A stretch of 38,496 nt of DNA from a virus: the IMG/VR virus record IMGVR_UViG_3300020037_002115; one strand, 5' to 3'. The position numbers were made by a program, and so were the translations under genes. Positions within the stretch are counted from its first letter, which is position 1; every line of letters starts with the position of its first letter. The notes beneath the pieces are model-generated. The model was not told where the DNA came from and searched no databases. It saw only the letters and a program-made list of their open reading frames with translations. Positions 122 to 36,553 of the stretch are shown piece after piece.

Positions 122-160
122 TTTCCTTGGAAGCACAAATTACCGAAGGATCAAAAATGA
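2..160 (+). CDS. 3' part of the junction-spanning ORF (hypothetical phage protein, 110 aa once the ends are joined)
   Basis: Superimposing the two repeat copies continues the 38203 ORF in frame: ...TIVDA|FPWKHKLPKDQK, with TGA at 158-160. Confidence 0.7.
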   Translation, partial: EAAWIADTGRFYDALEKGTLNEVEPIPDSVRINSDTIVDAFPWKHKLPKDQK

Positions 161-399
161 ACGGAGCAATTTTAAGAGCTGGATTTGATAGGTCTAGGTC
201 TAAATCTTGGTCTTGGTCTAGGTCTAAATCTTGGTCTTGGTCTTGGTCTAAATCTTGGTCTTGGTCTTGGTCTAGGTTTAGGTCTAGGTCTGAGTCTTGG
301 TCTAGGTCTAGGTCTAGGTCTTGGTCTTGGTCTAAATCTTGGTCTTGGTCTGAGTCTTGGTCTAGGTCTAGGTCTAGGTCTGAGTCTAGGTCAATTTAA
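157..399 (+). CDS. dipeptide-repeat ORF, frame 1: MNGAILRAGFD followed by 34 x (R/W/K/E)-Ser (80 aa)
   Basis: ATG 157 overlaps the upstream TGA 158-160 as ATGA, the coupling signature of this operon. The stop at 397-399 is followed by SD GGGAGGGG and ATG 418. The body is the hexamer array. Coding status is uncertain (see findings). Confidence 0.4.
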   Translation: MNGAILRAGFDRSRSKSWSWSRSKSWSWSWSKSWSWSWSRFRSRSESWSRSRSRSWSWSKSWSWSESWSRSRSRSESRSI

Positions 400-421
400 G
401 AAATTAGTGGGAGGGGTATGA
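185..421 (+). CDS. alternative reading of the same array, frame 2: (Gly-Leu)n with a few Asn/Ser (78 aa)
   Basis: TTG start without a clear SD. Its TGA 419-421 overlaps ATG 418 as ATGA. Repeat-unit variation is largely synonymous in this frame. Confidence 0.25.
   Translation: MIGLGLNLGLGLGLNLGLGLGLNLGLGLGLGLGLGLSLGLGLGLGLGLGLNLGLGLSLGLGLGLGLSLGQFKKLVGGV
190..393. repeat. tandem hexamer array, 34 units of NNNTCT
   Basis: Counted directly: aggtct x11, tggtct x14, aaatct x4, gagtct x3, aggttt x1, aggtca x1. A 30-nt block gagtct-tggtct-(aggtct)3 recurs at 292 and 352. Confidence 0.97.
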
Positions 422-3434: not shown

Positions 3435-3875
3435 ATGAAAACAAAAATACTAGCAATACTTTTAACAGCAATAGCGCTTGGTTGGTTGATAGCAGGGGCA
3501 GAAGCTCAAGTCTCTGCTACCCAAGAAAATAATCTAACAGTAATCTGGAAAAATAAATGTCCAGACTTACCGCCTGAAGCTTTTCTTCCTGCAACCAATC
3601 TTGCTGAGTGGGATGCTTTAACTGTGCTTTGGAGTTGTCATAACCGCAGCCAAGGAGCACAGACTTCTGAAACTTTAAGGCAAATCAAACTAGCAATCAA
3701 AAACACAGGCTTTAAAAAGAAGATTACGGTTTATTCCATAGACCCTTACTGCACTAAGGATTATTGCGACTATGGCGCTAAGGTTATAAAAGGTAAGCTC
3801 TACTATGCTGCTGATGTTAATGGCTGTGCTCCTGCTCGAAGAACTTTAGAAAGAAAGTTGAGGAAACTAAAATGA
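3435..3875 (+). CDS. secreted Cys-containing protein (146 aa)
   Basis: It has a signal peptide MKTKILAILLTAIALGWLIAGAEA|QV and SD AAAGGAAA upstream. Confidence 0.75.
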   Translation: MKTKILAILLTAIALGWLIAGAEAQVSATQENNLTVIWKNKCPDLPPEAFLPATNLAEWDALTVLWSCHNRSQGAQTSETLRQIKLAIKNTGFKKKITVYSIDPYCTKDYCDYGAKVIKGKLYYAADVNGCAPARRTLERKLRKLK

Positions 3876-4185: not shown

Positions 4186-4277
4186 AACAATCAACCAAAG
4201 ACCTAGGCTGTTTATTGCTAATGCTGTTTGCCTTATGCAGCCTAACTATAGCTTTAATTTTGTGTGCGGCTAAATGA
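4182..4277 (+). CDS. small membrane protein (31 aa)
   Basis: Hand-translated: MKQSTKDLGCLLLMLFALCSLTIALILCAAK. ATGA coupling at both ends. Confidence 0.4.
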   Translation: MKQSTKDLGCLLLMLFALCSLTIALILCAAK

Positions 4278-4699
4278 AACACTTAATTTTCTTACTCTTA
4301 CTAACCGGCTGCTCCCTCCAGCGTGGCCCTAATCCAACACCGTCAACTTACTACAGCGTGAATATAATCAATAAGCCTTACTGTGCCGAGTCGCTTAAAG
4401 AGGCGCAGGATTATTTACTAAGTTACGGCATTGTGTTAGCAGAAAATCCGCAGTTACCTAAACACCTAGTTTGCTTACCAACCCCTAGCTGGTTCTTTCG
4501 TAACTTTAATTTAGCTTATGTTGCTGGCTTAACTGGAGGGGATGTTGCTGTAGTGACTGATGACCCTAAAGTGATATTACATGAGCTAGGCCATCTCTTT
4601 GGATTGAAACATAGCTGGCGTGGCTTAATGTTCCCAGTAGATACGCCTTTTGCTAAGGGGTTTAGTGAAGAAGATTTAGAGAGGTTGAGAAATGAATAA
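4274..4699 (+). CDS. lipoprotein zinc metalloprotease, metzincin-like (141 aa)
   Basis: It has a lipobox MKHLIFLLLLTG|C and a zinc motif HELGHLFGLKH (HExxHxxGxxH). A Met follows in RGLMFP. Confidence 0.7.
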   Translation: MKHLIFLLLLTGCSLQRGPNPTPSTYYSVNIINKPYCAESLKEAQDYLLSYGIVLAENPQLPKHLVCLPTPSWFFRNFNLAYVAGLTGGDVAVVTDDPKVILHELGHLFGLKHSWRGLMFPVDTPFAKGFSEEDLERLRNE

Positions 4700-4935: not shown

Positions 4936-5151
4936 CTAGCGATACTTAGAAGCAAAAGCCGCTTGACCTACCCCAGCTAAACCTAACCAGCCAGCAACTT
5001 CAACACAGTACTGAGCTAGCGGAGCAGTTACAGGGAAATATGGGAATATCACAGCGCAACCAGCTAAAGTAGCTGCCAAGGTTCGCTTAATCCCTTTAGA
5101 TTTAAAAATATCCAAAACAGTAAAATCATTAATTGCGCTAAGTAGGCTCAT
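4936..5151 (-). CDS. two-TM membrane protein, holin candidate (71 aa)
   Basis: It has hydrophobic segments TLAATLAGCAVIFPYFPV and VAGWLGLAGVGQAAFA. It is the last gene of the late operon and is ATGA-coupled to the upstream gene. Confidence 0.4.
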   Translation of the reverse strand: MSLLSAINDFTVLDIFKSKGIKRTLAATLAGCAVIFPYFPVTAPLAQYCVEVAGWLGLAGVGQAAFASKYR

Positions 5152-6104
5152 CTGTAGCTCCCATCTCGGAACGTCGGATTGACTGTTCCATACTTGCCTA
5201 GCTTAACAGGAATTTGGGCTATCTCATAGCCCCATTTTGGGCAGTACCAACGACTACGGCCATTGTCAAATGGCCCGTAATATTTACAATCAGTATCTCC
5301 AACTTTAATTACTTTATCCTTACTAGGGCCTATGATAACTGGCTTTTCAGCTCTTGGGTCTCCATTTCCTTTATTTTCTGAATGACTTTTATATATCCAG
5401 TTTTTAGGTAACGAAGTTGCGCCCTTTGGTTTAGCTAGCGCCAACATGGATTTAATCATTTTACCGTCTGCATAACCTTTACGACTCGAACGAGGGGTAC
5501 TGTCCGTGTCTTCCCAGCGTCCGTTGTAACGAGGCGACCAGAACATAAAGAACTCGGTAAAGCCTTTGTTCTTCTGAGCTTCGATATTGATATCCTCAGA
5601 GGGCTTACCGTCAGAGCTATAGCTAGACTTAGAAGATTTAGGACCACCTTCGCCATGAGTCTCATTTATGTACTGCGGTAGTACGGCTCCTTTCCAGGGG
5701 GTGTTTACGTAGGTAGCTTGTGGACAAGCTAAAATAACGAGATTCGCTAATTTAGTTGCGGAGTTTAACGATAGATTATGTTCGCAGGCGCCGGAAAGGT
5801 AAAGCTTAGTTTTAGCAGCTAAAGGGCAAAAGCGTTTTGCTTGCTTAACCAATTCTGGAAAATCAGATTCTTTAAAATTATGATCGTCTTTCCAGCCGAG
5901 CTGAATTCTTAGGAATGGAACTCTACTTGCTAGTTGTTGTGCGAGCGGTAAAGAATCTCCGAATGTGGTAGCAAATAACCCTGCACCTTGAGAGTAATCG
6001 TGATTTGATAATATCTCTTTTTGAAATTTCGCGCCTCCGAGGTAGTCTTGCCCAAAAGGAACTAGAATAAATAGTGACAGTAGTAACTTAATCATTTTCC
6101 ACAC
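5148..6104 (-). CDS. exported protein, candidate lysis or glycan-degrading enzyme (318 aa)
   Basis: It has an N-terminal signal or anchor MWKMIKLLLSLFILVPFG. The motifs YINETHGEG and GFTEFFMFW loosely resemble clan GH-A acid/base and nucleophile motifs. No classical lysozyme or amidase motif was seen. Confidence 0.35.
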   Translation of the reverse strand: MWKMIKLLLSLFILVPFGQDYLGGAKFQKEILSNHDYSQGAGLFATTFGDSLPLAQQLASRVPFLRIQLGWKDDHNFKESDFPELVKQAKRFCPLAAKTKLYLSGACEHNLSLNSATKLANLVILACPQATYVNTPWKGAVLPQYINETHGEGGPKSSKSSYSSDGKPSEDINIEAQKNKGFTEFFMFWSPRYNGRWEDTDSTPRSSRKGYADGKMIKSMLALAKPKGATSLPKNWIYKSHSENKGNGDPRAEKPVIIGPSKDKVIKVGDTDCKYYGPFDNGRSRWYCPKWGYEIAQIPVKLGKYGTVNPTFRDGSYR

Positions 6105-6373
6105 TCCGTTCTACATTGTTTCAAATCAGAACTACAATAATTAAGCTGCGTATTACACCTAACACAATCAACTTCAGCCATCCTAATCTGATTCCAGCTA
6201 GCCACTATCTTATCTAAAACTGGGATGAGTAGGTAAAGGCCAAAGAGACAAATACAGCCAACAGTGCTACCAAGGGCGCGGCTAACGACCATATTGCGGC
6301 TTCTCGAAATGCTATCCAACATTCCGTCTGATTGCGCTTGTGATGTGCTATTCTTCTCATTTTTTTCATCCAT
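6092..6373 (-). CDS. type-II membrane protein with a Cys-rich C-terminal domain (93 aa)
   Basis: A polar N-terminus is followed by TM GCICLFGLYLLIPVL and then a CVRC...C...C..C tail. It is the first gene of the lysis cluster. Confidence 0.5.
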   Translation of the reverse strand: MDEKNEKNSTSQAQSDGMLDSISRSRNMVVSRALGSTVGCICLFGLYLLIPVLDKIVASWNQIRMAEVDCVRCNTQLNYCSSDLKQCRTECGK

Positions 6374-6421: not shown

Positions 6422-7045
6422 TTAAGTAAAATATCCGAAAACATCACAAATTGAAGTGGCTGTCCCAGCATAAGCTAACGTCGTTTTCACTGAATATATT
6501 TGCAACAAATCCCCAGCAGCAAACGCCGTTGCTGTAATTGCAGCGTAATTAGTGGCAGGATTAGCAGGAAACGCTAAGCTAATAGACTGCGCTGTACTAA
6601 CTCCATTCTTATAGAGAATAAAATCCAATTGGCCAGCAGTTAAATTACTAACTGAAATAGCTGCCAAGTTTGTAGCAGTAAAAGCCCTAGGAATTAAAAC
6701 GCTAACAATAGCAACAGAAGCCCTATTTGAAGCTGCCGCAGCAGCAGAGCCTCCACCAGCAACTGAGAATGTTTCTAGTAACGCTGGTCTTTTAGTCTGC
6801 CCAAAAGTAGCAGAGTCACTATCAGCAGTCCCATTAGCAACATTTGTATGCTTAAACCCACCCATCGGCATGTTTGCCGTCGGAGCGTTTGCACCATTTT
6901 TGTTAATGCAGTTGTTAATGCCGGTTGCTAAATCATTGTCTTGAGTATCGTGGATCAACGCCTCAATCCCGACATTTGCAGCCGCGTCATTTTGCCATTG
7001 TGAAGCGCCTAATGCGCGTACAAAGCTAGAGCCAGTCCATGCCAT
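6422..7045 (-). CDS. tail fibre / receptor-binding protein candidate (207 aa)
   Basis: The N-terminus (WQNDAAANVGIEALIHDTQDNDLATGINNCINKNG...NMPMGGFKHTNVANGT..DSDSATFGQ) resembles a conserved fibre N-terminal module. Its position after the internal virion proteins matches T7-like order. Confidence 0.5.
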   Translation of the reverse strand: MAWTGSSFVRALGASQWQNDAAANVGIEALIHDTQDNDLATGINNCINKNGANAPTANMPMGGFKHTNVANGTADSDSATFGQTKRPALLETFSVAGGGSAAAAASNRASVAIVSVLIPRAFTATNLAAISVSNLTAGQLDFILYKNGVSTAQSISLAFPANPATNYAAITATAFAAGDLLQIYSVKTTLAYAGTATSICDVFGYFT

Positions 7046-7046
7046 A

Positions 7047-9098
7047 TTAAACCTCTGTAATTTTATTTAAATGTTTCTCTACTGTGTAAGGATACCTCTG
7101 CCCTTCCTCTGGAATTAGATTTTTAATATCACTCCATTTAACAGTTGATTTTGTTTTACCTGCTTCTTTAATTGCTTTGTTAATTACTGTTTCTCCTTGG
7201 TTATAAGCAGCTAGCACTATAAAAGGATCTTCGTACTTAGTTGATAAGTCTTGCAAGAAAGCAGTTCCAGCTTTTACGTTTTGTCTTGGATCTAATCTGT
7301 CTTTTGCGCCGTAAGCATTGCCAATGCGTCTAGTTAATTGCATTAAGCCAAGTGGACCCGTTGGCGATTGCGCCAGAGCATCTCCTGCACTCTCTGTCTT
7401 AATAATCGCCTGAATCAACGGCGGCTGAGCCTTAACAAAATCTGCAACTTTCTTAATGCGCTCAGCTTTAGGTAAGTTGTTTAATTGCGAAGGAATCGGA
7501 GTCAGTTTAGGCTCTGGCTTTTCTGTTGGTTTTATGGCTTGGTTGAATTCAGTTCTGTTCACTGGTTTAGTCTCCTTTTTAGCAATCTGATTAGCCGCTT
7601 GAACTGCTCCAATTACTTCAGGAGTTACTATCTTATTAATGGCATTTGATACTGGAGCTAAAGTTTTACCAAGTCCACGCATTACGCTAGCCGTAACAGC
7701 TTGACCTGTTGGGGTTGTTAAAGCTTTACCTGTCAATCCAATACTTGCGCCAATAATAGATCCAACAGGACCACCCATTATACTACCTGCGATAGTTGGC
7801 GCGCCTATTCCTCCAGTGGTAAATCCAATATTTGCAAGCTTAGCAATTGGATCATCCGTCATTGACTGAACAACGCGACGGTCTAAAATTGGTCTTACTT
7901 CTTGATAAGTTCCACTTTTTTCATTTAATGATTTAACTGTACCTGAATATTCTGGAGGCAGCTTACCTTGAACAACTAAATCATCAACTCCATTTTCGAT
8001 TGCAGTTTTTAAATCTGATGCCACATACTTCGCAAGAGCTTCTTTAGCTGCTCCGCTTTCTCCATAAGTTTTACCGTACAAAGCTCGCTTTTCTCTTTGT
8101 AGCGCATCTAAAGTACCATCCAATATGGTATTGTGAGCTGCTTTAATTTCATTTAACGCTTCATTTAATGCGCCACGCTCTGAGGCTGGTTGGGTCTTGA
8201 TCCAGGATTCCGCTTTTGTGTATTTAGGAATTATAGGGTTAGCAGTATTTACAGAATCAGCAGTTTGTAAAACATTACTTAAATCATTTTCAATCGCGTT
8301 TAAAACATCTGTATTTTTATCTAATAGTTTTACTGGGTTTCTAGTTCCACTAAACCCACCTTCCTGTCTAACCTGCTCAATAGAATTTGCAAGGCTAGTT
8401 GTAGTTTCTCCAGATACCGAATCTTCAAATCCTTTGTATTTAGCTGACTTTGCAAAATCTGCTTGTCTAGCTCCAATCGATTTTCTATTTAAAACTTCAG
8501 CAAGTCGAGGAGCGCCACTAGCCACTCCATTTATAGCACCCTTAGCGGCTCCACCTAAAGCGCCCATAGTAACACCTTGACCTGTCATTTCTGCAAGTTT
8601 ATTTACATCCTGTTGGCCTGTAGTTGGAACATCTGATCCAGTTGCTTGGTTTAAATAATCAAAACCTAGCAATCCCGCGCCCCCTCCAATTGCAGCTCCT
8701 AGTAATGATCCTAATGGAGCGGTTATGGGTGCGGCTGGACCACCTAGTAAACCAAGAGATCCGCCTGTGCTAGCGCCAACTCCAGCGCCAGCTACCCCTG
8801 CGCCTAGTGAACCAACTCCGCGTAATACTTTTTCTGTATTACCGCTTTGAATTGAATCAATTGGGTTAGCAACTGATTCGTAAATATTAGAGACGCCGCT
8901 TGGAATAGACTTGATCGCATTATATGTTGCGCCTGGAGCTTCTACTAATCCCTTACCAAAGGATTGCAATATAGACGGCTGCTGATAAACCTGATCAAAA
9001 ATATCAGGCTCTTTCCCACCAATTTTAATATAAGTTTGCCCACTAGGAACTGAACCCGAAGCAGCACCCCCATATACTTCATCAAATACATCAGCCAT
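7047..9098 (-). CDS. internal virion / ejection protein with a C-terminal lytic transglycosylase (SLT) domain (683 aa)
   Basis: The SLT motifs are IKTESAGD...GLMQLT...AAYNQG. Gly-rich membrane-like segments lie at the N-terminus and in the middle. Confidence 0.8.
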   Translation of the reverse strand: MADVFDEVYGGAASGSVPSGQTYIKIGGKEPDIFDQVYQQPSILQSFGKGLVEAPGATYNAIKSIPSGVSNIYESVANPIDSIQSGNTEKVLRGVGSLGAGVAGAGVGASTGGSLGLLGGPAAPITAPLGSLLGAAIGGGAGLLGFDYLNQATGSDVPTTGQQDVNKLAEMTGQGVTMGALGGAAKGAINGVASGAPRLAEVLNRKSIGARQADFAKSAKYKGFEDSVSGETTTSLANSIEQVRQEGGFSGTRNPVKLLDKNTDVLNAIENDLSNVLQTADSVNTANPIIPKYTKAESWIKTQPASERGALNEALNEIKAAHNTILDGTLDALQREKRALYGKTYGESGAAKEALAKYVASDLKTAIENGVDDLVVQGKLPPEYSGTVKSLNEKSGTYQEVRPILDRRVVQSMTDDPIAKLANIGFTTGGIGAPTIAGSIMGGPVGSIIGASIGLTGKALTTPTGQAVTASVMRGLGKTLAPVSNAINKIVTPEVIGAVQAANQIAKKETKPVNRTEFNQAIKPTEKPEPKLTPIPSQLNNLPKAERIKKVADFVKAQPPLIQAIIKTESAGDALAQSPTGPLGLMQLTRRIGNAYGAKDRLDPRQNVKAGTAFLQDLSTKYEDPFIVLAAYNQGETVINKAIKEAGKTKSTVKWSDIKNLIPEEGQRYPYTVEKHLNKITEV

Positions 9099-15763: not shown

Positions 15764-16531
15764 TTAATATAAATCTAGCTCGCCAATTGCTGAAACTAGC
15801 GGAGTCCCTGCGCTTACGTCTACAACAGCAGTTACTAAAGTCTTTTCTGGGATTAACAATCCAGTTCCAAAATCAAATTCAATGTAACCTTTATTAAAAG
15901 CTGTAACGTCTAATGCCGCTTGACCAATAGCTTTAACCCGAACAACTCCAGTTGAGCTTTGAGTCTTAATATAAACCCACATATCACCTGTACTTGACCT
16001 TGCGTAAACCCTAACACTCTTAAGCATCCCTTGAGTATCAGCAGGAACCGTATAGACAAAATCAGCCGATTCTCCCTGAGACTCTACAACAGCTTGAATT
16101 GAACTTTTTACAGCAGCGCCCGATATAGCCCTTACATCAATCTTTCCAGCATTAACCAATCCAGACCCAGCAGTAAGTACCGTAGTCTTATTAATCGCAA
16201 TTGCTGTTGTATTTGTTAATGGAACTGGAGTTGTACCATTTAAGGTAACGGTTTCAGTAAAAGGGACATAAGTACTAAGTAAGCCCTCAACCTTAACCGT
16301 TCTAGCCCCTGTTCCTGCTGCTGCATCATTAGCAGAAGCAGATACAACTTCCATCGGAGTCGCTGCTGTTAGCTGGACATAAGAAGTAGCACCGCCTGAC
16401 CAGAGGGTTGAAGCAGTAGTTGATACTGAAGGATTATATCCAATAATATTAACCTGCGCTTTCCCCGCCCCTGTTTGACCAAAAGCAATCGAAGGCAAAA
16501 GACACAGTAAAAATAAAATCTTCTTAATCAC
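15764..16531 (-). CDS. exported beta-rich protein (255 aa)
   Basis: It has a signal peptide MIKKILFLLCLLPSIAFG|QTG. The GTG start overlaps the upstream stop (TAGTG). The mature part is Thr/Ala/Val-rich. Confidence 0.6.
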   Translation of the reverse strand: MIKKILFLLCLLPSIAFGQTGAGKAQVNIIGYNPSVSTTASTLWSGGATSYVQLTAATPMEVVSASANDAAAGTGARTVKVEGLLSTYVPFTETVTLNGTTPVPLTNTTAIAINKTTVLTAGSGLVNAGKIDVRAISGAAVKSSIQAVVESQGESADFVYTVPADTQGMLKSVRVYARSSTGDMWVYIKTQSSTGVVRVKAIGQAALDVTAFNKGYIEFDFGTGLLIPEKTLVTAVVDVSAGTPLVSAIGELDLY

Positions 16532-16731
16532 TATTTTCCTTCCTCTTCAGGCGCTTCTTTAGGTCTCGGCAATATCTTTGCATCCTGCAATTCTTTTATG
16601 TACCCATTAATCGCTCTAATATTAACATCATGGTTAAAGAGGATTTGTTCCACTTTAGCTGGATCTAGCCGCTTATCTTCAAGTTGAAGTGTGCAGCCGG
16701 AGAGTAGTAGTGCTAGGAGTAGGTGTTTCAT
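16531..16731 (-). CDS. small lipoprotein (66 aa)
   Basis: I chose ATG 16731, giving TAATG overlap with the upstream stop. The lipobox is MKHLLLALLLSG|C. Confidence 0.65.
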   Translation of the reverse strand: MKHLLLALLLSGCTLQLEDKRLDPAKVEQILFNHDVNIRAINGYIKELQDAKILPRPKEAPEEEGK

Positions 16732-17465
16732 TAGCGACAGCCCCACCGTGAGCTTGATCCAGCAGTGTGTACAGCCTTAAAGCAAACTGCGGAAGCTCCG
16801 GCAGCTACTGAAAAGCCAGCGCCGTCAGCTAAAGAGTTTATCCCGTCATCGGCATCGGCTGGGTAAACAAGTAGAGCGTTTGCCCCTCGATTAATTACGT
16901 TTACTGTATACCCTGCGGTTGTTCCTGTATCGAATAGCTTAACACCTGTGCCCGAAGCTGTAGTAGTAACTCGATTAGTAACAGAAGTTAGCTGAAGTGC
17001 ATCTGCTACTGTTGTTCCTGTGGCTGTTAAACCATCAGCGGCAGATTGTGCAACCGCAGTACTAGCCTTCGTCAAAACAATATTCCCCCCATTCGTCGCG
17101 TCTTGGGTGAGGGCGCCGTTTGTACTATCAATCGTCCAGCGAGTAAGTGAATTAGCTCTTAGTATTAGGGAAGTCGCGGTGCTTGTACCTAAAATCATAG
17201 TACCAGCAGACAATATGTTTGGCCCTGCCCCGAAAACAACATCTCCTTTTAGATATAAGCTTCTAAAGTTCTTACTAGCCGACCCTAAGTCAATCGCATT
17301 GTCGGTCAATGGAATAATACTAGCAGTAATAGCCGTCCCATACTGAGCATCAATCTCAGCAGCTAAAGCCCCAGGCATTCCAAGCCCCATCAAATCACTG
17401 ACATTATCAGCATAAGCATTAGCCGTATAAAATAACGCTAACAAAGATATTAAAATTCGTTTCAT
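16731..17465 (-). CDS. exported fibre-like protein (244 aa)
   Basis: It has a signal peptide MKRILISLLALFYTANAYA|D. The motif IIPLTDNAIDLGSASKNFRSLYLKG resembles a recurring tail-fibre motif. A Cys pair lies at the C-terminus. Confidence 0.55.
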   Translation of the reverse strand: MKRILISLLALFYTANAYADNVSDLMGLGMPGALAAEIDAQYGTAITASIIPLTDNAIDLGSASKNFRSLYLKGDVVFGAGPNILSAGTMILGTSTATSLILRANSLTRWTIDSTNGALTQDATNGGNIVLTKASTAVAQSAADGLTATGTTVADALQLTSVTNRVTTTASGTGVKLFDTGTTAGYTVNVINRGANALLVYPADADDGINSLADGAGFSVAAGASAVCFKAVHTAGSSSRWGCR

Positions 17466-24259: not shown

Positions 24260-25228
24260 TTATCCCTCTAAGCTTCCAGGCTTCTTAGGCTTGTCAGAAG
24301 CTTCTCTAACCTCTGCTCCTGTAATCTGCCCGCTTGCGTCCTTAAGAAACTGATACCGCTTAATACTTGCTTTTGCTTTCTCTTTTTTATCCGGTGCGTC
24401 AGATTGTAAAATACTGCTTAACTCAGCTAGATGATTATCCGCGTGTTCTCTCTTTCTTTGCTGGGCATCAACAGTAGCAACTAACTTATTAAAATCAGAA
24501 TCTTTCTGCTCCATCTTCAGTCTAAGCGCATCAATAGTTGCTGCTAAATTAGTTTGCATTACCGCAATTTGCTGATTAGCTTTTTCTATTTCAGTGTTAG
24601 ACTGAATTTTTAAAACCTCAACTTCTAACTTCTTATTATCTATCAATACATCCTGCTGTATCTTCCAAAAATCTTGAGCTAGTTTTGCTTGCTCAATCTG
24701 CGCTTTGGCCTGCCTATCCATGTCCTCCATTTGCGCCTTAACTTGCATGATTTGCAACTCAATCTGATCTTTTTGCACACTAGCTTGCATCTCTGCTTGC
24801 TTGCCCTGCATTGTCATTTGCGCGATTTGCTGATCTGATTGAGCTTTAATCAAGGCGGGGTCAGGAGGAACCTGCGAAGCTGCCTCCATTTTTTGTCTAG
24901 CAATATCCGCAACCTGTTCAAGCATTTCCGTATACATAGCTTCATCTTCTTTGCCCCCCTTATAGTGGCGTGAAACACGCTGCATGAATTTAATCGCAAA
25001 CTTAGCCATCGGTGGATACTCAGTAATCATATCTTTCATTTGCTGAAAGAATGAGCCTGTGCTTTGTAGTAAATCTGCGTTGTCTGCGCGCTCTTGCTTC
25101 TGGTCTATTGCGACCATTGAGTCTGAAGCAATTACTAGTTTAAATAGTTGACGCGATTCCTTAAGCAATGAAACGCATTCAAGCGCTCTTTGTTCCCAGG
25201 GGATTGGCATCGACATTGGTTGTTCCAT
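24260..25228 (-). CDS. coiled-coil protein adjacent to the portal (322 aa)
   Basis: It has TAATG overlap with the portal stop. A long Gln/Glu/Lys heptad-like region is present. Confidence 0.5.
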   Translation of the reverse strand: MEQPMSMPIPWEQRALECVSLLKESRQLFKLVIASDSMVAIDQKQERADNADLLQSTGSFFQQMKDMITEYPPMAKFAIKFMQRVSRHYKGGKEDEAMYTEMLEQVADIARQKMEAASQVPPDPALIKAQSDQQIAQMTMQGKQAEMQASVQKDQIELQIMQVKAQMEDMDRQAKAQIEQAKLAQDFWKIQQDVLIDNKKLEVEVLKIQSNTEIEKANQQIAVMQTNLAATIDALRLKMEQKDSDFNKLVATVDAQQRKREHADNHLAELSSILQSDAPDKKEKAKASIKRYQFLKDASGQITGAEVREASDKPKKPGSLEG

Positions 25229-26754
25229 TACATTGACCCTTGTTGCATTGGAGATTGTGATAAAGGAGCTTGCACTAAAGGTTCAAACAACTCCCTAGCA
25301 CTTCCACGCTCTAAAATAGTCTGCGGAGATAGGCAAGTAGCAATCACAGTGCCCAGCTTTTCAATCCCTTCTCCAACATGATTTGTAAATTGGTTCTGCT
25401 TGACTATCAGGCCCATTGATGACCATGCGTTCTCAAATCTGTTAGCCGTTGCTGTCTTAGTTGGGTTGCTAATCCCCTGCATTAAGTCAGAGATTTTTAA
25501 AGTTTGAAACAGCGATTGTTTAGCTGCTTCGAGCTGTTCGCTAATGACCTGCAATGCGTTGACATAAGGCTCAACATTTAAGTATTCAGTACCACCGCTT
25601 AACCCTCCTGCGGCTCTTGTCCTTTCCCACTGTTTAACAGGGCGCATCTGTAAATCACCCTTAAACATATCTTGCATTACATCCCCTAATGTTGGGTTGT
25701 AAATTCCGTTTGCTCGAATTGCTTGAATCAAACCATGCTTACGCTCTGCCAATCTCTCAACCTCTAAAATCTGATCTTTCGAACTAGCAAAATCTGAGAC
25801 CGGAATAGTTGACTCAGGATCTACGCATTGAGCTAGCACAGAACAAGGATAAAAACCTGGGTACTTAATTGGCACAGGCCCAGATTCTACTACCGAAGAT
25901 TTGCCGCGTGATTGAATAAAGATTTGCTTGCCGTTCTCTTCGTCCCACACTTCCCAGATATCAGCTTTCCCATTCTGAGGGTTTCTGTCTTGGTCGTTAG
26001 GTTTGCTGTCTTGCTGAAAACTTGGGTATGCATCGTACTTCAATTTGTTTGCTGTCTCTTTACCAAACAAATCTTCCGCTTCTTCTCTCGTCAAATACCC
26101 ACGCTTAGCCCTCCACTCAACTTCGTTTTCGTTCTGAGCATCAGAGTTTAAATAATTATTATAAGCTACAAACTTTAAGACCGCTTTCTCAGACTCAATC
26201 GTATCAAGTTTATAACTAAAATTCTTGCCATTAGTTTCAACCTCCTTCGGATCGCCTTCATATAGTTTCCCGTCTGGTAAATATAAACCACCCTTGCCTG
26301 CTGTTAGTGGCACATCCTTTGGCTCCCCAAATGTGCAGTCGTATTCAGCCCAGAGAACTGAGCGACCAGTGAGTAAAACTGATAGCGCTGCCGAGTAACC
26401 AACAAAATCAAAATTAAAATCTAAGTCCATGCAGTACTGAGTGTTGCGTTCGAGTAAGACTGCGGCTAGGTCTAGGTTTTCGCTTCCTGCGTATTTGCGT
26501 AAATTAACTTCAGCCCTTGGGGTTGAGCTGTAGTAAGCAGGGAGTAATGTGTTTACGATATACTTCCAGATATTAACGCGCCTTGCTAAGCCTTCGAATG
26601 TGTCTCTTGTGTTGTAAACTTTGATTGATTGCTCAGCTTCCCTGTAAAAATGCTTCTCATGTCTCTTAATAGAATTCTGAATCTCTTGGCCCCAGTAAGC
26701 AGAATCATACTTGCTGGATTTAGTTGGTTCTTTGGTTTTCTTTTTCTGTGCCAT
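25228..26754 (-). CDS. portal protein (508 aa)
   Basis: It lies immediately downstream of TerL with a 1-nt overlap. Its size is typical of podovirus head-tail connectors. Confidence 0.75.
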   Translation of the reverse strand: MAQKKKTKEPTKSSKYDSAYWGQEIQNSIKRHEKHFYREAEQSIKVYNTRDTFEGLARRVNIWKYIVNTLLPAYYSSTPRAEVNLRKYAGSENLDLAAVLLERNTQYCMDLDFNFDFVGYSAALSVLLTGRSVLWAEYDCTFGEPKDVPLTAGKGGLYLPDGKLYEGDPKEVETNGKNFSYKLDTIESEKAVLKFVAYNNYLNSDAQNENEVEWRAKRGYLTREEAEDLFGKETANKLKYDAYPSFQQDSKPNDQDRNPQNGKADIWEVWDEENGKQIFIQSRGKSSVVESGPVPIKYPGFYPCSVLAQCVDPESTIPVSDFASSKDQILEVERLAERKHGLIQAIRANGIYNPTLGDVMQDMFKGDLQMRPVKQWERTRAAGGLSGGTEYLNVEPYVNALQVISEQLEAAKQSLFQTLKISDLMQGISNPTKTATANRFENAWSSMGLIVKQNQFTNHVGEGIEKLGTVIATCLSPQTILERGSARELFEPLVQAPLSQSPMQQGSM

Positions 26755-33028: not shown

Positions 33029-33538
33029 ATGAAATATAGAGATATAATTAAAAACGCAACAATTGAACCAGAGAAATCATTTAATTCTGTAGTGCCTAAA
33101 GGTAGGTACTTGTGTGAATTAAAAAACGTAGAAGAAAAAGTAAGTAAAGAAGGTAATCCTTACCTTAAATTTGATTGGGTTATTTGTGATGGTGGAGAAT
33201 ATGATTCATGGCACTTATTTCCTATGATTAGTCCTGGAACTGAGCGCGGTGCAGGGATGTTAAAGCAGTTATGTGAAGCGGTTGGTTTGCCTGATGGGTT
33301 TGACGAAGTGTACGAGCTGCATGATCGTAAGTGTGTTCTTTCTGTTTACATTAAGAAATCTAAAGATCCTCAGTATCCAGATGATAAAAATGGGGTTGGA
33401 GGGTATTATGTTGCTACGGAAGGAAGTGTAGTTGTTGGGAGTAAGTCTAGAGTTCCTGTAGCACAGCCGAAGAGAAATATTTTAGATCAAAATCAAGCTG
33501 CACAAGCGGCGTTTGATTCGGATGATATCCCTTTCTAG
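33029..33538 (+). CDS. DUF669-like single-strand DNA-binding protein with an SSB-type acidic tip (169 aa)
   Basis: It contains VVPKGRYLCELKNVEEKVSKEGNPYLKF. The C-terminus is FDSDDIPF; the E. coli SSB tip is DDDIPF. Confidence 0.65.
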   Translation: MKYRDIIKNATIEPEKSFNSVVPKGRYLCELKNVEEKVSKEGNPYLKFDWVICDGGEYDSWHLFPMISPGTERGAGMLKQLCEAVGLPDGFDEVYELHDRKCVLSVYIKKSKDPQYPDDKNGVGGYYVATEGSVVVGSKSRVPVAQPKRNILDQNQAAQAAFDSDDIPF

Positions 33539-33545
33539 GAAACAT

Positions 33546-33827
33546 ATGAATAGAATAATATTAGTCTTATTACTTCTAATTTCTCGCTCCGCAAGTGCTG
33601 AAAACATTTGCGGAGCTGTAGCTAAACACGAAAGATTCCATACAAGAATTGAGCGCGGTAGTTATTGCATGAGCTTTTTTGTTCAATTCCCTTGGGGAAG
33701 ATGTAGCACTAGGGCTTGTTGGAAAGGAAGCAGAAGTTATCCGCCATCAGTTCGCGGATATGCTTGTGGCACTAGGGTTGTCTGTATCAGGCAGGGAAGA
33801 GGGCCGAGGTATTCGTGTAGATATTAA
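33546..33827 (+). CDS. secreted protein; the N-terminal part is convincing, the Cys/Arg-rich C-terminal part is doubtful (93 aa)
   Basis: SD AGGAAA lies upstream and the signal peptide is MNRIILVLLLLISRSASA|E. Downstream of the T6 run (33675-33680) the +1 frame looks more coding-like. Confidence 0.5.
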   Translation: MNRIILVLLLLISRSASAENICGAVAKHERFHTRIERGSYCMSFFVQFPWGRCSTRACWKGSRSYPPSVRGYACGTRVVCIRQGRGPRYSCRY

Positions 33828-36316: not shown

Positions 36317-36383
36317 ATAGCTTTTTAATCCTTTTATTTATTCCGTTTGCGATTTGTAATGCTTGCTCGTAGGTTGTGGTCAT
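36156..36383 (-). CDS. hypothetical protein; the first ~45 codons are convincing, the rest doubtful (75 aa)
   Basis: SD GGGAGA lies 7 nt upstream and the start has TAATG overlap with the lipoprotein stop. The C-terminal third (SRPDSIRRLSRLQLASNNPAPGVGPKRVKR) looks like off-frame translation. Confidence 0.45.
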   Translation of the reverse strand: MTTTYEQALQIANGINKRIKKLYGTNEEFRRICALVFEQDVVYNHSRPDSIRRLSRLQLASNNPAPGVGPKRVKR

Positions 36384-36553
36384 TAGTACTTCTCCCTAAG
36401 AGCAGGCTCTTGCTTTAATCCCGCTTGGTTGTTTAGCTCCTTAACTGGGCTAACCCCTATTTCAAAGCGCCAGCCTGTAGAACCGGCGCAGCCGCTTAAT
36501 ATGCTAACTCCTAATGCTGCTGTAATTCCTAATAATATTGCGTATATCTTCAT
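36383..36553 (-). CDS. small lipoprotein (56 aa), not in the ORF track
   Basis: Hand-translated: MKIYAILLGITAALGVSILSG|CAGSTGWRFEIGVSPVKELNNQAGLKQEPALREKY. It has a lipobox LSGC, and SD AAAGG lies upstream. Confidence 0.6.
   Translation of the reverse strand: MKIYAILLGITAALGVSILSGCAGSTGWRFEIGVSPVKELNNQAGLKQEPALREKY

Follow-up and report, generated by a model that had tools for sequence, protein, structure and literature searches.

Predicted export of a short-fibre protein, a lipoprotein and a jelly-roll protein encoded by consecutive late genes of a tailed phage

Gene layout and export signals of the A-B-C locus

The 38,496-nucleotide (nt) viral DNA of IMG/VR record IMGVR_UViG_3300020037_002115, hereafter the window, carries three consecutive genes, here called A, B and C, whose products all bear predicted export signals and the first of which resembles a short phage fibre. 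A preliminary description of this DNA had reported three successive genes joined by 1-nt overlaps and followed by a 115-nt gap. This layout was confirmed: stop and start codons overlap by 1 nt as TAATG at A/B and as TAGTG at B/C, and the gap runs from 15763 to 15649. This overlap couples the translation of the three genes. The genes and the main features of their products, with lengths in amino acids (aa) and model confidence as the predicted local distance difference test score (pLDDT), are as follows.

17465-16731, minus strand: gene A, 244 aa, ATG start, Sec-type signal peptide
17465-17409, minus strand: signal peptide of A, MKRILISLLALFYTANAYA, cleavage before DNVSD; n-region KR, h-region ILISLLALFY, c-region A-Y-A
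17393-17361, minus strand: docking-type motif of A, LMGLGMPGALA, 5 residues past the predicted cleavage site
17318-17244, minus strand: fibre motif of A, IIPLTDNAIDLGSASKNFRSLYLKG, residues 50-74
17048-16734, minus strand: tip domain of A, residues 140-244, beta-rich, pLDDT >90
16731-16531, minus strand: gene B, 66 aa, ATG start, lipoprotein precursor
16704-16693, minus strand: lipobox of B, L-S-G-C13, with MKH / LLLALL ahead and Thr at +2
16531-15764, minus strand: gene C, 255 aa, GTG start, Sec-type leader, phrog_8198
16531-16478, minus strand: leader of C, MIKKILFLLCLLPSIAFG, cleavage before QTGAG

The leader of A is laid out as MKR / ILISLLALFY / TAN-A-Y-A followed by Asp, and that of C as MIKK / ILFLLCLLPSIAF / A-F-G followed by Gln. 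Both show the charged n-region, the h-region of 7-15 residues and the small residues at -3 and -1 that are typical of Sec substrates cleaved by signal peptidase I, and B shows the charged n-region, hydrophobic stretch and lipobox ([LVI][ASTVI][GAS]C) of a lipoprotein. These calls were based on the n/h/c-region and (-3,-1) rules, the lipobox consensus and comparative evidence, and they fit the earlier suggestion that all three proteins carry export signals. Leaders across relatives were counted with a crude in-house heuristic, which was positive for A, B and C and for 62 of the 1296 predicted genes (4.8%) in 93 phage loci. At this background rate, three positives in a row would be expected by chance with a probability of about 1e-4. 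Moreover, the leaders on the fibre and on the lipoprotein are kept in many related contigs, and the A-type leader also occurs in P0126, P0135, P0139, P0146, P0149, L011 and L189.

A and C were also tested as cargo of the type IX secretion system, and the Por-secretion-tail domain was not found in them with NCBIfam and Pfam. Gln follows many predicted cleavage sites at +1 (L007, L009, L013, L014, L192, P0082, P0113, P0122, P0129, P0138 and P0154), within the window in the leaders encoded at 3435-3875, 5148-6104 and 15764-16531. Such a Gln is a known bias of the secreted proteins of Bacteroidota. A Bacteroidota host was considered on this ground and set aside, since Asp and not Gln stands at +1 in A, and both the leaders and the lipobox are of a generic kind. 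A possible origin of the C leader as a copy of the leader of a 318-aa protein of the window (16478-16531 compared with 6040-6104, both ending in FG before Q) was set aside: the likeness hints at leader exchange inside the genome, but at about 64% DNA identity over 59 nt it lacks significance.

A, B and C are part of a late operon, because their translation is coupled, they have no promoter of their own and their G+C content (GC) and GC at third codon positions (GC3) lie inside the range of the neighbouring genes. The transcription features around them are listed here.

17499-17484, minus strand: terminator-like hairpin GGGGTC-GAAA-GACCCC followed by TTTTTT, 3' of the 165-aa gene
18049-18031, minus strand: second terminator-like hairpin, 3' of the capsid gene
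15763-15649, minus strand: 115-nt spacer between C and the p50-like gene

The hairpin at 17499-17484, with a fold energy of -14.7 kcal/mol (z = -2.7), corresponds to the strong terminator that had been noted ahead of the trio, and it probably attenuates late transcription more than ending it. A search for a sigma-70-like promoter between this hairpin and the start of A found none, and neither a terminator-like site nor a significant fold was detected in the spacer after C. The public gene call for B gives 66 aa, and an alternative upstream GTG at 16746 would give 71 aa. A Shine-Dalgarno sequence, GAGGAAGGA, lies 5-13 nt before the GTG start of C. Inside the spacer, a very basic ORF (open reading frame) of 12 codons (MAKKKGGKKPKC; 15755-15717, minus strand) is predicted.

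The predicted exported fibre and its two neighbours

The family of A comprised 51 clusters in a word-indexed search and 1116 representatives at E<=1e-3 in an exhaustive phmmer search. Its members are built from an N-terminal segment (often LMGLGMP..LA), an optional fibre stretch and a beta tip of about 100 residues. The N-terminus is constant and the C-terminal domain is exchanged, being an A-type tip, a Cys-rich tip or K1-lyase_C, and the fibre motif of A is also present in relatives bearing other C-terminal domains. A therefore has the conserved N-terminal attachment segment and the exchangeable C-terminus by which a structural, modular fibre is recognised. In addition, the tip domain forms the C-terminus of a 1492-aa fibre in L123 and of proteins with an Mx8-p64-type tail-fibre N-terminus, and further family members reach 1552-2832 aa. 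The docking motif occurs in the window in A alone, and it is strictly conserved in the exported forms, including those at loci without B.

In sister phages the gene order is scaffold, capsid, a protein of about 160 aa, a slot, p50 and adaptor, with p50 preceding the slot in some. Leaderless proteins with the motif and the tip occupy the same slot in L096 (P0159), L097 (P0140), L098, L136 (two 136-aa copies), L106 and L134 (pairs in both). On sequence and position, A is the orthologue of these leaderless short fibres. It shares with the leaderless fibres of Mx8-like, SU10-adaptor-type podoviruses the slot, the LMGLGMP-type motif and the tip domain, and differs from them in adding a cleavable Sec leader, a Cys pair in the tip and a dedicated lipoprotein behind it. 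The predicted cleavage site lies 5-7 residues before the motif in the leader forms (5 in A) and most leaderless forms begin 6 residues ahead of it, so the leader appears to be an add-on to an otherwise complete fibre. The predicted mature N-terminus of A (DNVSD-LMGLGMP) should accordingly resemble that of its cytoplasmic relatives. The fibre-like character first suggested for A was thus borne out by the motif at residues 50-74, the leaderless orthologues and the fold matches given below. The trio had also been described as wedged between head and tail genes; its position is correct, while the implied intrusion is not, as the slot is the usual appendage site of this lineage.

The AlphaFold2 (AF2) monomer model of A had a mean pLDDT of 81.7. 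The best matches in the Protein Data Bank (PDB) in a fold search were a phage tailspike, the Pa223 capsid spike, a baseplate protein and CBA120 TSP4, the match to the Pa223 spike (9ny6_C) being weak (E 0.012). A has two Cys in total, C228 (16784-16782) and C243 (16739-16737), which the model places on two neighbouring strands (E225-231 and E240-243) that run antiparallel, with the register that a disulfide would need. No match for A was found in Pfam, NCBIfam or PADLOC, and PHROGs gave a marginal match of unknown function. The family was absent from 50,697 cultured-phage records, where A had no match by tblastn, and the structural region of the window had no nucleotide relative among cultured phages. 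The docking motif and the tip domain had zero matches in 185,579 reference genomes.

The alignment columns of C228 and C243 hold Cys in the leader-bearing proteins, and elsewhere mostly Phe or another hydrophobic residue and Gly, Ala or Ser, respectively. The counts of leader and Cys pair are given below; the sequences are related by descent, so the Fisher tests overstate their independence and the p-values are indicative.

First sample with the tip aligned (n=48): leader and pair, 12; leader without pair, 4; pair without leader, 1; neither, 31; Fisher p = 3e-7
All complete tip-terminated proteins (n=159): leader and pair, 33; leader without pair, 16; pair without leader, 5; neither, 105; Fisher p = 6e-17

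Two of the 5 proteins scored as having the pair without a leader have leader-like N-termini that the heuristic missed. In a separate set of tip proteins, the pair was present in 7/7 leader proteins and absent from about 85 leaderless ones, mostly from IMG/VR, apart from three regular-expression matches that all lie in a C-terminal extension past the tip. Cys is still more frequent (4-9 residues) in relatives that bear a different C-terminal domain. The leader is present in about a third of the A-family representatives (49/159), and the C-terminal Cys pair of A that had been noted earlier proved significant through its covariation with the leader (33/49 compared with 5/110). Because of this covariation, the export of A-type fibres is well supported as evolutionarily real from the comparison of sequences.

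Three phage clades each hold both the leader and the leaderless state, the major capsid protein (MCP) being 26-30% identical between clades. The pairings within clades, with MCP identity, are the following.

Window, L010 and L011 compared with L136: 65%
L009 compared with L097: 53%
L014 compared with L096: 68%

Both states in three clades therefore indicate at least three switches between the cytoplasmic and the exported route. The function evidently tolerates either compartment, and so it would most simply be exerted after lysis or on the particle.

Mature B has 54 aa with a conserved core (..H..I..I..YI..LQ..G.LP.P), 4 Pro (7%) and no further Cys. A small lipoprotein follows the exported fibre in the window, L003, L005, L008, L010, L013, L015, L189 and L191. 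Seven of these sequences (the window, L003, L005, L008, L010, L013 and L015) form one alignable B family with an invariant Cys; the lipoproteins of L189 and L191 have the lipobox Cys too, and Asp at +2 occurs in 0/9. Since it lacks Asp at +2, B is probably sorted to the outer membrane. In 8 of the 13 assessable exported-fibre loci a B-type lipoprotein is encoded no more than three genes away, compared with 0 genuine cases in 78 leaderless loci (p = 6e-7), where both of the lipoprotein matches obtained were false. Furthermore, B homology persists across swapped fibre tips: B of the window and of L010 are about 54% identical, and those of L005, L013 and L015 are related. In L010, which is the closest relative, the tip differs and is rich in Cys, and an SGNH/GDSL hydrolase stands where C would be. 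As B is kept across swapped tips and confined to exported-fibre loci, we argue that its role would be tied to the periplasmic route itself and not to a particular receptor. B had no match in Pfam, NCBIfam, PHROGs, PADLOC or PDB, a word-indexed homology search returned B alone, and pattern scans of IMG/VR and of the JGI metagenomes gave no match.

C matched phrog_8198, a family of unknown function, over residues 15-231 (E = 1.4e-15) and had 624 homologues. Its AF2 model (pLDDT 91) consists of two jelly-roll sandwiches. The clearest local fold match was TNF-like, the best whole-protein matches were uncharacterised caudoviral proteins, and a match to XepA was rejected as uninformative (TM, the template modelling score, 0.18). 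From the model, C appears to be a tandem jelly-roll (TNF/C1q-like) accessory protein. In C, a Gly-rich loop (AGTGART) is strongly conserved and there are polar residues that never vary. No match for C was found in Pfam, NCBIfam or PADLOC, and PDB searches with profiles of C and of the tip gave nothing meaningful.

C often lies behind the fibre and lipoprotein genes (L003, L005, L008, L013, L014 and L015), and its relatives also adjoin portal or terminase genes in unrelated phages. Among the 120 listed relatives of C, 117 have no leader; the leader is present in the C of the window, P0082 and P0113, and 3/3 of the leader-bearing forms stand beside fibre genes of the exported type. The leader that had been assigned to the third protein is therefore real in the window phage and not typical of the family. 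The whole exported trio is present in L189. L191 combines a Cys-rich fibre tip, a lipoprotein, a leader-bearing C and an SU10-type adaptor, the N-terminus of its fibre being off the contig, and in L192 an exported C adjoins an exported fibre. With 77% identity to its closest leaderless relatives, the C of the window looks like a recent recruit to the exported route.

Several further observations were made on the tip family and the slot. P0184 and P0301, of the tip-domain family, have a lipoprotein-type leader (..GVSLAC, then GIS..) in place of a Sec/signal peptidase I leader and would be lipid-anchored fibre-tip proteins. In L010 the hydrolase and a 101-aa beta protein together (6855-7970) take the place of C. 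This protein of about 100 aa appears, by eye, to recur beside leaderless fibres (L096, 6416-7115; L136, 6323-6640) and may be another member of the appendage slot. A distant relative, Stenotrophomonas phage BUCT555 (L093, 8631-9951), encodes in the slot a holin, an endolysin and two small membrane proteins. In general, then, the stretch that separates the head genes from the p50/adaptor genes is a hotspot of exchangeable cassettes.

Proposed appendage assembly across two compartments and its alternatives

The reading that we favour, to which we give slightly less than an even chance, is that A-B-C is a Sec-exported, disulfide-stabilised appendage module that meets the virions at lysis, with B as a periplasmic partner. 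A, B and C would be expressed late and the module routed via the Sec pathway. Signal peptidase would cleave A to leave an N-terminus like that of the leaderless sister fibres, and the Cys pair of the tip would form a disulfide in the oxidising periplasm. B would most likely be the periplasmic partner of the exported fibre (a tether, holdase or assembly factor), and C, usually cytoplasmic in its family, would be co-exported in the window phage. When the holin opens the inner membrane, virions would presumably mix with the periplasmic appendages inside the compartment bounded by the outer membrane, and the fibres may then dock on the particles through the N-terminal motif. The sequences show the genes and their coupling, the export signals, the orthology of A to leaderless fibres, the covariation of leader and Cys pair, the tie of B to exported fibres and the repeated change of route; the actual export and cleavage, the disulfide, the attachment to the virion and the role of B are inferred. 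Of the three readings offered in the preliminary description, an exported fibre-like system and virion proteins with cleavable leaders gave the best fit, with virion attachment presumed.

The capsid spike gp52 of Pa223 (Bruynoghevirus) is a trimeric appendage that docks on the finished particle via an N-terminal segment of about 40 residues (bioRxiv 10.1101/2025.06.11.659172), and by analogy the addition of fibres outside the cytoplasm seems physically reasonable. The build of gp52, in which a short attachment segment at the N-terminus leads into a fibre body with a knob at its C-terminus, resembles that predicted for A; unlike A, gp52 is leaderless and assembled in the cytoplasm, and the two have no sequence homology. 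Signal-peptide-bearing trimers that resemble phage tail fibres are also exported by Bdellovibrio for surface recognition, as mosaic adhesive trimer (MAT) fibres (PMC10769870). These are encoded by a bacterium for predation, have different domains, gave marginal local fold matches to A and act outside any virus particle.

Several points weigh against an exported appendage that joins the virion. The Cys pair is missing from 16 of the 49 leader-bearing family members, mature C of the window has zero Cys, and B is missing from 5 of the 13 loci with an exported fibre. Moreover, a separate, leaderless Mx8-p64-like tail fibre exists in the window (6422-7045), so A need not be the main receptor-binding protein and could be freed for a role outside the virion. 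Within the library searched, no precedent was found for a periplasmic protein joining a tailed-phage virion at or after lysis. The search also found no report of Sec-exported fibres in tailed phages, which is absence of evidence.

This separate tail fibre would also suit an envelope-acting cassette that is never part of the virion. A would then derive from a receptor-binding protein and, working with B on the periplasmic side, would mask or modify the receptor, for superinfection exclusion or progeny protection as with T5 Llp and phi80 Cor. All three proteins have export signals, small outer-membrane lipoproteins encoded next to receptor-binding-protein genes are known to serve exclusion (T5 Llp; PMC9586334), and the slot is plastic, BUCT555 keeping a holin and an endolysin there. 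A receptor-specific blocker, however, should co-vary with the tip, whereas B remains homologous despite swapped tips, and B never occurs beside leaderless fibres, where exclusion would be equally useful. The strict conservation of the docking motif in exported forms, even at loci without B, points to a partner on the particle, and leaderless orthologues occupy the same slot. B has no sequence relationship to Llp or Cor; neither homology to them nor co-variation with receptor specificity was found, and B is confined to exported-fibre loci. Its gene belongs to the late operon, in contrast to the early synthesis reported for Llp (10.64898/2026.03.26.714494), and PADLOC, Pfam, NCBIfam and PDB gave no match. 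We therefore regard this cassette as unlikely, and superinfection exclusion or receptor masking, proposed at the outset, was not supported as the lead reading.

A moron-like cassette had been proposed for the trio as well. The lambda morons lom and bor likewise encode Sec- or Lol-targeted proteins among structural genes. They have their own promoter and terminator, a foreign composition, a patchy distribution and prophage expression, and none of this holds for A-B-C. There is no own promoter upstream of A and no terminator after C, the GC and GC3 are native and the slot is conserved; no lysogeny genes were found in the ORFs tested, no relatives of the docking motif or the tip domain were found in the reference genomes, and leaderless orthologues exist. 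The proposal was accordingly abandoned.

Since sister phages use both routes, the waiting compartment could also be irrelevant, and the products might be soluble proteins freed at lysis and never bound to particles, such as free adhesins, or proteins acting on polysaccharides, that would condition debris or nearby cells once the host has burst. K1-lyase_C or SGNH-hydrolase domains occur in relatives from the slot, and the AGTGART loop and the invariant polar residues of C suggest a binding or catalytic site. Yet a docked fibre is recognised by just this pairing of a constant, lineage-specific N-terminal motif with shuffled C-terminal domains. Long proteins that are genuine fibres end in the tip domain, and no enzyme domain is recognisable in A. 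Release of soluble proteins is thus rather improbable.

It is also improbable, to a clearly greater degree, that the hydrophobic N-termini are start-codon artefacts or assembly helices and that all three proteins stay in the cytoplasm. This would suit the missing leader in nearly all C relatives and the GTG start of C, and the leaders were judged by rules and a heuristic. Closer to the conserved core of C, however, no ATG, GTG or TTG in frame is preceded by a ribosome-binding site, and the GTG start of C has a strong Shine-Dalgarno sequence and overlaps the stop codon of B. The properties of the A-type leader are kept across many contigs, the leaders covary with the Cys pair and with the neighbouring lipoprotein, and the lipobox Cys of B is invariant.

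We consider a lysis accessory hardly credible. Here A and B would form a spanin-like pair, or B would be an o-spanin, disrupting the outer membrane late in infection. The arrangement does recall the two-component spanins (Rz/Rz1), in which adjacent, overlapping genes encode an i-spanin and, second, a small outer-membrane lipoprotein: a gene with a hydrophobic N-terminus is followed by an overlapping small lipoprotein gene. A spanin or endolysin was not identified elsewhere in the genome, and a distant relative has lysis genes in the same slot. In A, however, an h-region of about 10 residues followed by A-Y-A marks a cleavable leader and not a membrane anchor, and the protein is beta-rich and fibre-like with no coiled coil. 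Mature B, at 7% Pro and with no periplasmic Cys, is not the Pro-rich o-spanin, so that neither the uncleaved anchor, the coiled coil nor the Pro-rich partner of the two-component systems was found in A and B. In addition, A has leaderless orthologues, several exported-fibre loci lack B, and a candidate lysis cluster lies elsewhere (4936-6373).

Tailed-phage particles are taught as products of the cytoplasm. If the favoured module of exported appendages extends to its relatives, a widespread group of tailed phages would route virion parts via the periplasm, as Sec-exported fibres, sometimes with a jelly-roll partner, oxidised by the host Dsb system, held by a dedicated outer-membrane lipoprotein and added once the holin opens the inner membrane. 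We put this forward tentatively, as a possibility that is more probably wrong than right. If true, it would involve roughly one in three members of a fibre family that counts more than 1000 representatives and would mean a Caudoviricetes virion assembled across two compartments. An exported form on the particle would show that virion assembly can span two cell compartments and would make host Dsb and Sec/Lol functions phage dependency factors; rules of genome annotation by which secreted proteins are dismissed as non-structural would fail for such phages. If the exported form is not on the particle, the module would be an envelope-acting system of a new kind, with its origin in a receptor-binding protein. 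The covariation of leader and Cys pair provides a clean computational marker for further cases.

Genome context and other predicted exported proteins

The window looks like a complete virulent podovirus with an Mx8-like capsid and an SU10-type adaptor. Its gene set includes a primase-helicase, terminase, portal, capsid, an internal protein with a transglycosylase domain and a p64-type tail fibre, and no integrase, repressor or other lysogeny gene was found among the ORFs tested. The capsid protein is 27-33% identical to those of Mx8/Mx9, BUCT555 and Brucella Tb-like phages. Rfam and tRNA scans of the window were empty. The genes flanking A-B-C, the second tail-fibre gene and the candidate lysis genes are as follows.

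19029-18055, minus strand: major capsid protein, phrog_9953, upstream of the trio
18003-17506, minus strand: conserved 165-aa head-associated protein, upstream of the trio
15648-15043, minus strand: Mx8 p50-like 201-aa protein, downstream of the trio
15046-14183, minus strand: adaptor/tail protein, phrog_6013, downstream of the trio; homologues carry PF24175 SU10_adaptor
6422-7045, minus strand: 207-aa protein, N-terminus like the Mx8 p64/Mx9 tail fibre by eye; phrog_13989, phrog_25848
4936-6373, minus strand: candidate lysis cluster, with a 93-aa single-pass membrane protein with a Cys-rich tail, a 318-aa leader protein and a 71-aa two-helix holin-like protein

By its sequence, the 207-aa protein is probably the conventional leaderless tail fibre of the window phage. 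Genome-wide, no endolysin or spanin domain was recognisable except the transglycosylase domain of the 683-aa internal virion protein (7047-9098).

Two other regions showed unusual ORFs or repeats. At 24260-26754 (minus strand), consecutive ORFs of 508 and 322 aa match the N- and C-terminal parts of the portal family phrog_12082. The portal gene may be split here, a frameshift or an error in sequencing may separate its two parts, or the 322-aa ORF may encode a protein of its own whose C-terminal part is portal-like. A low-complexity tandem repeat at 127-421 (plus strand) translates as (SWSWSRSK)n or, in a different frame, as (LGLGLN)n and could be a repeat region or a contig-end feature.

Moreover, the window encodes unusually many further predicted exported proteins.

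3435-3875, plus strand: 146-aa exported protein, leader ending in AEA, then Q
4274-4699, plus strand: 141-aa lipoprotein (LLTGC) with a HELGH metzincin-type zinc-protease motif; Pfam Reprolysin_4, 23.6 bits with a cut-off of 22
5148-6104, minus strand: 318-aa protein, leader MIKLLLSLFILVPFG, then Q; no family match
33513-33827, plus strand: protein of about 92 aa, leader MNRIILVLLLLISRSASA
36383-36553, minus strand: possible 56-aa lipoprotein

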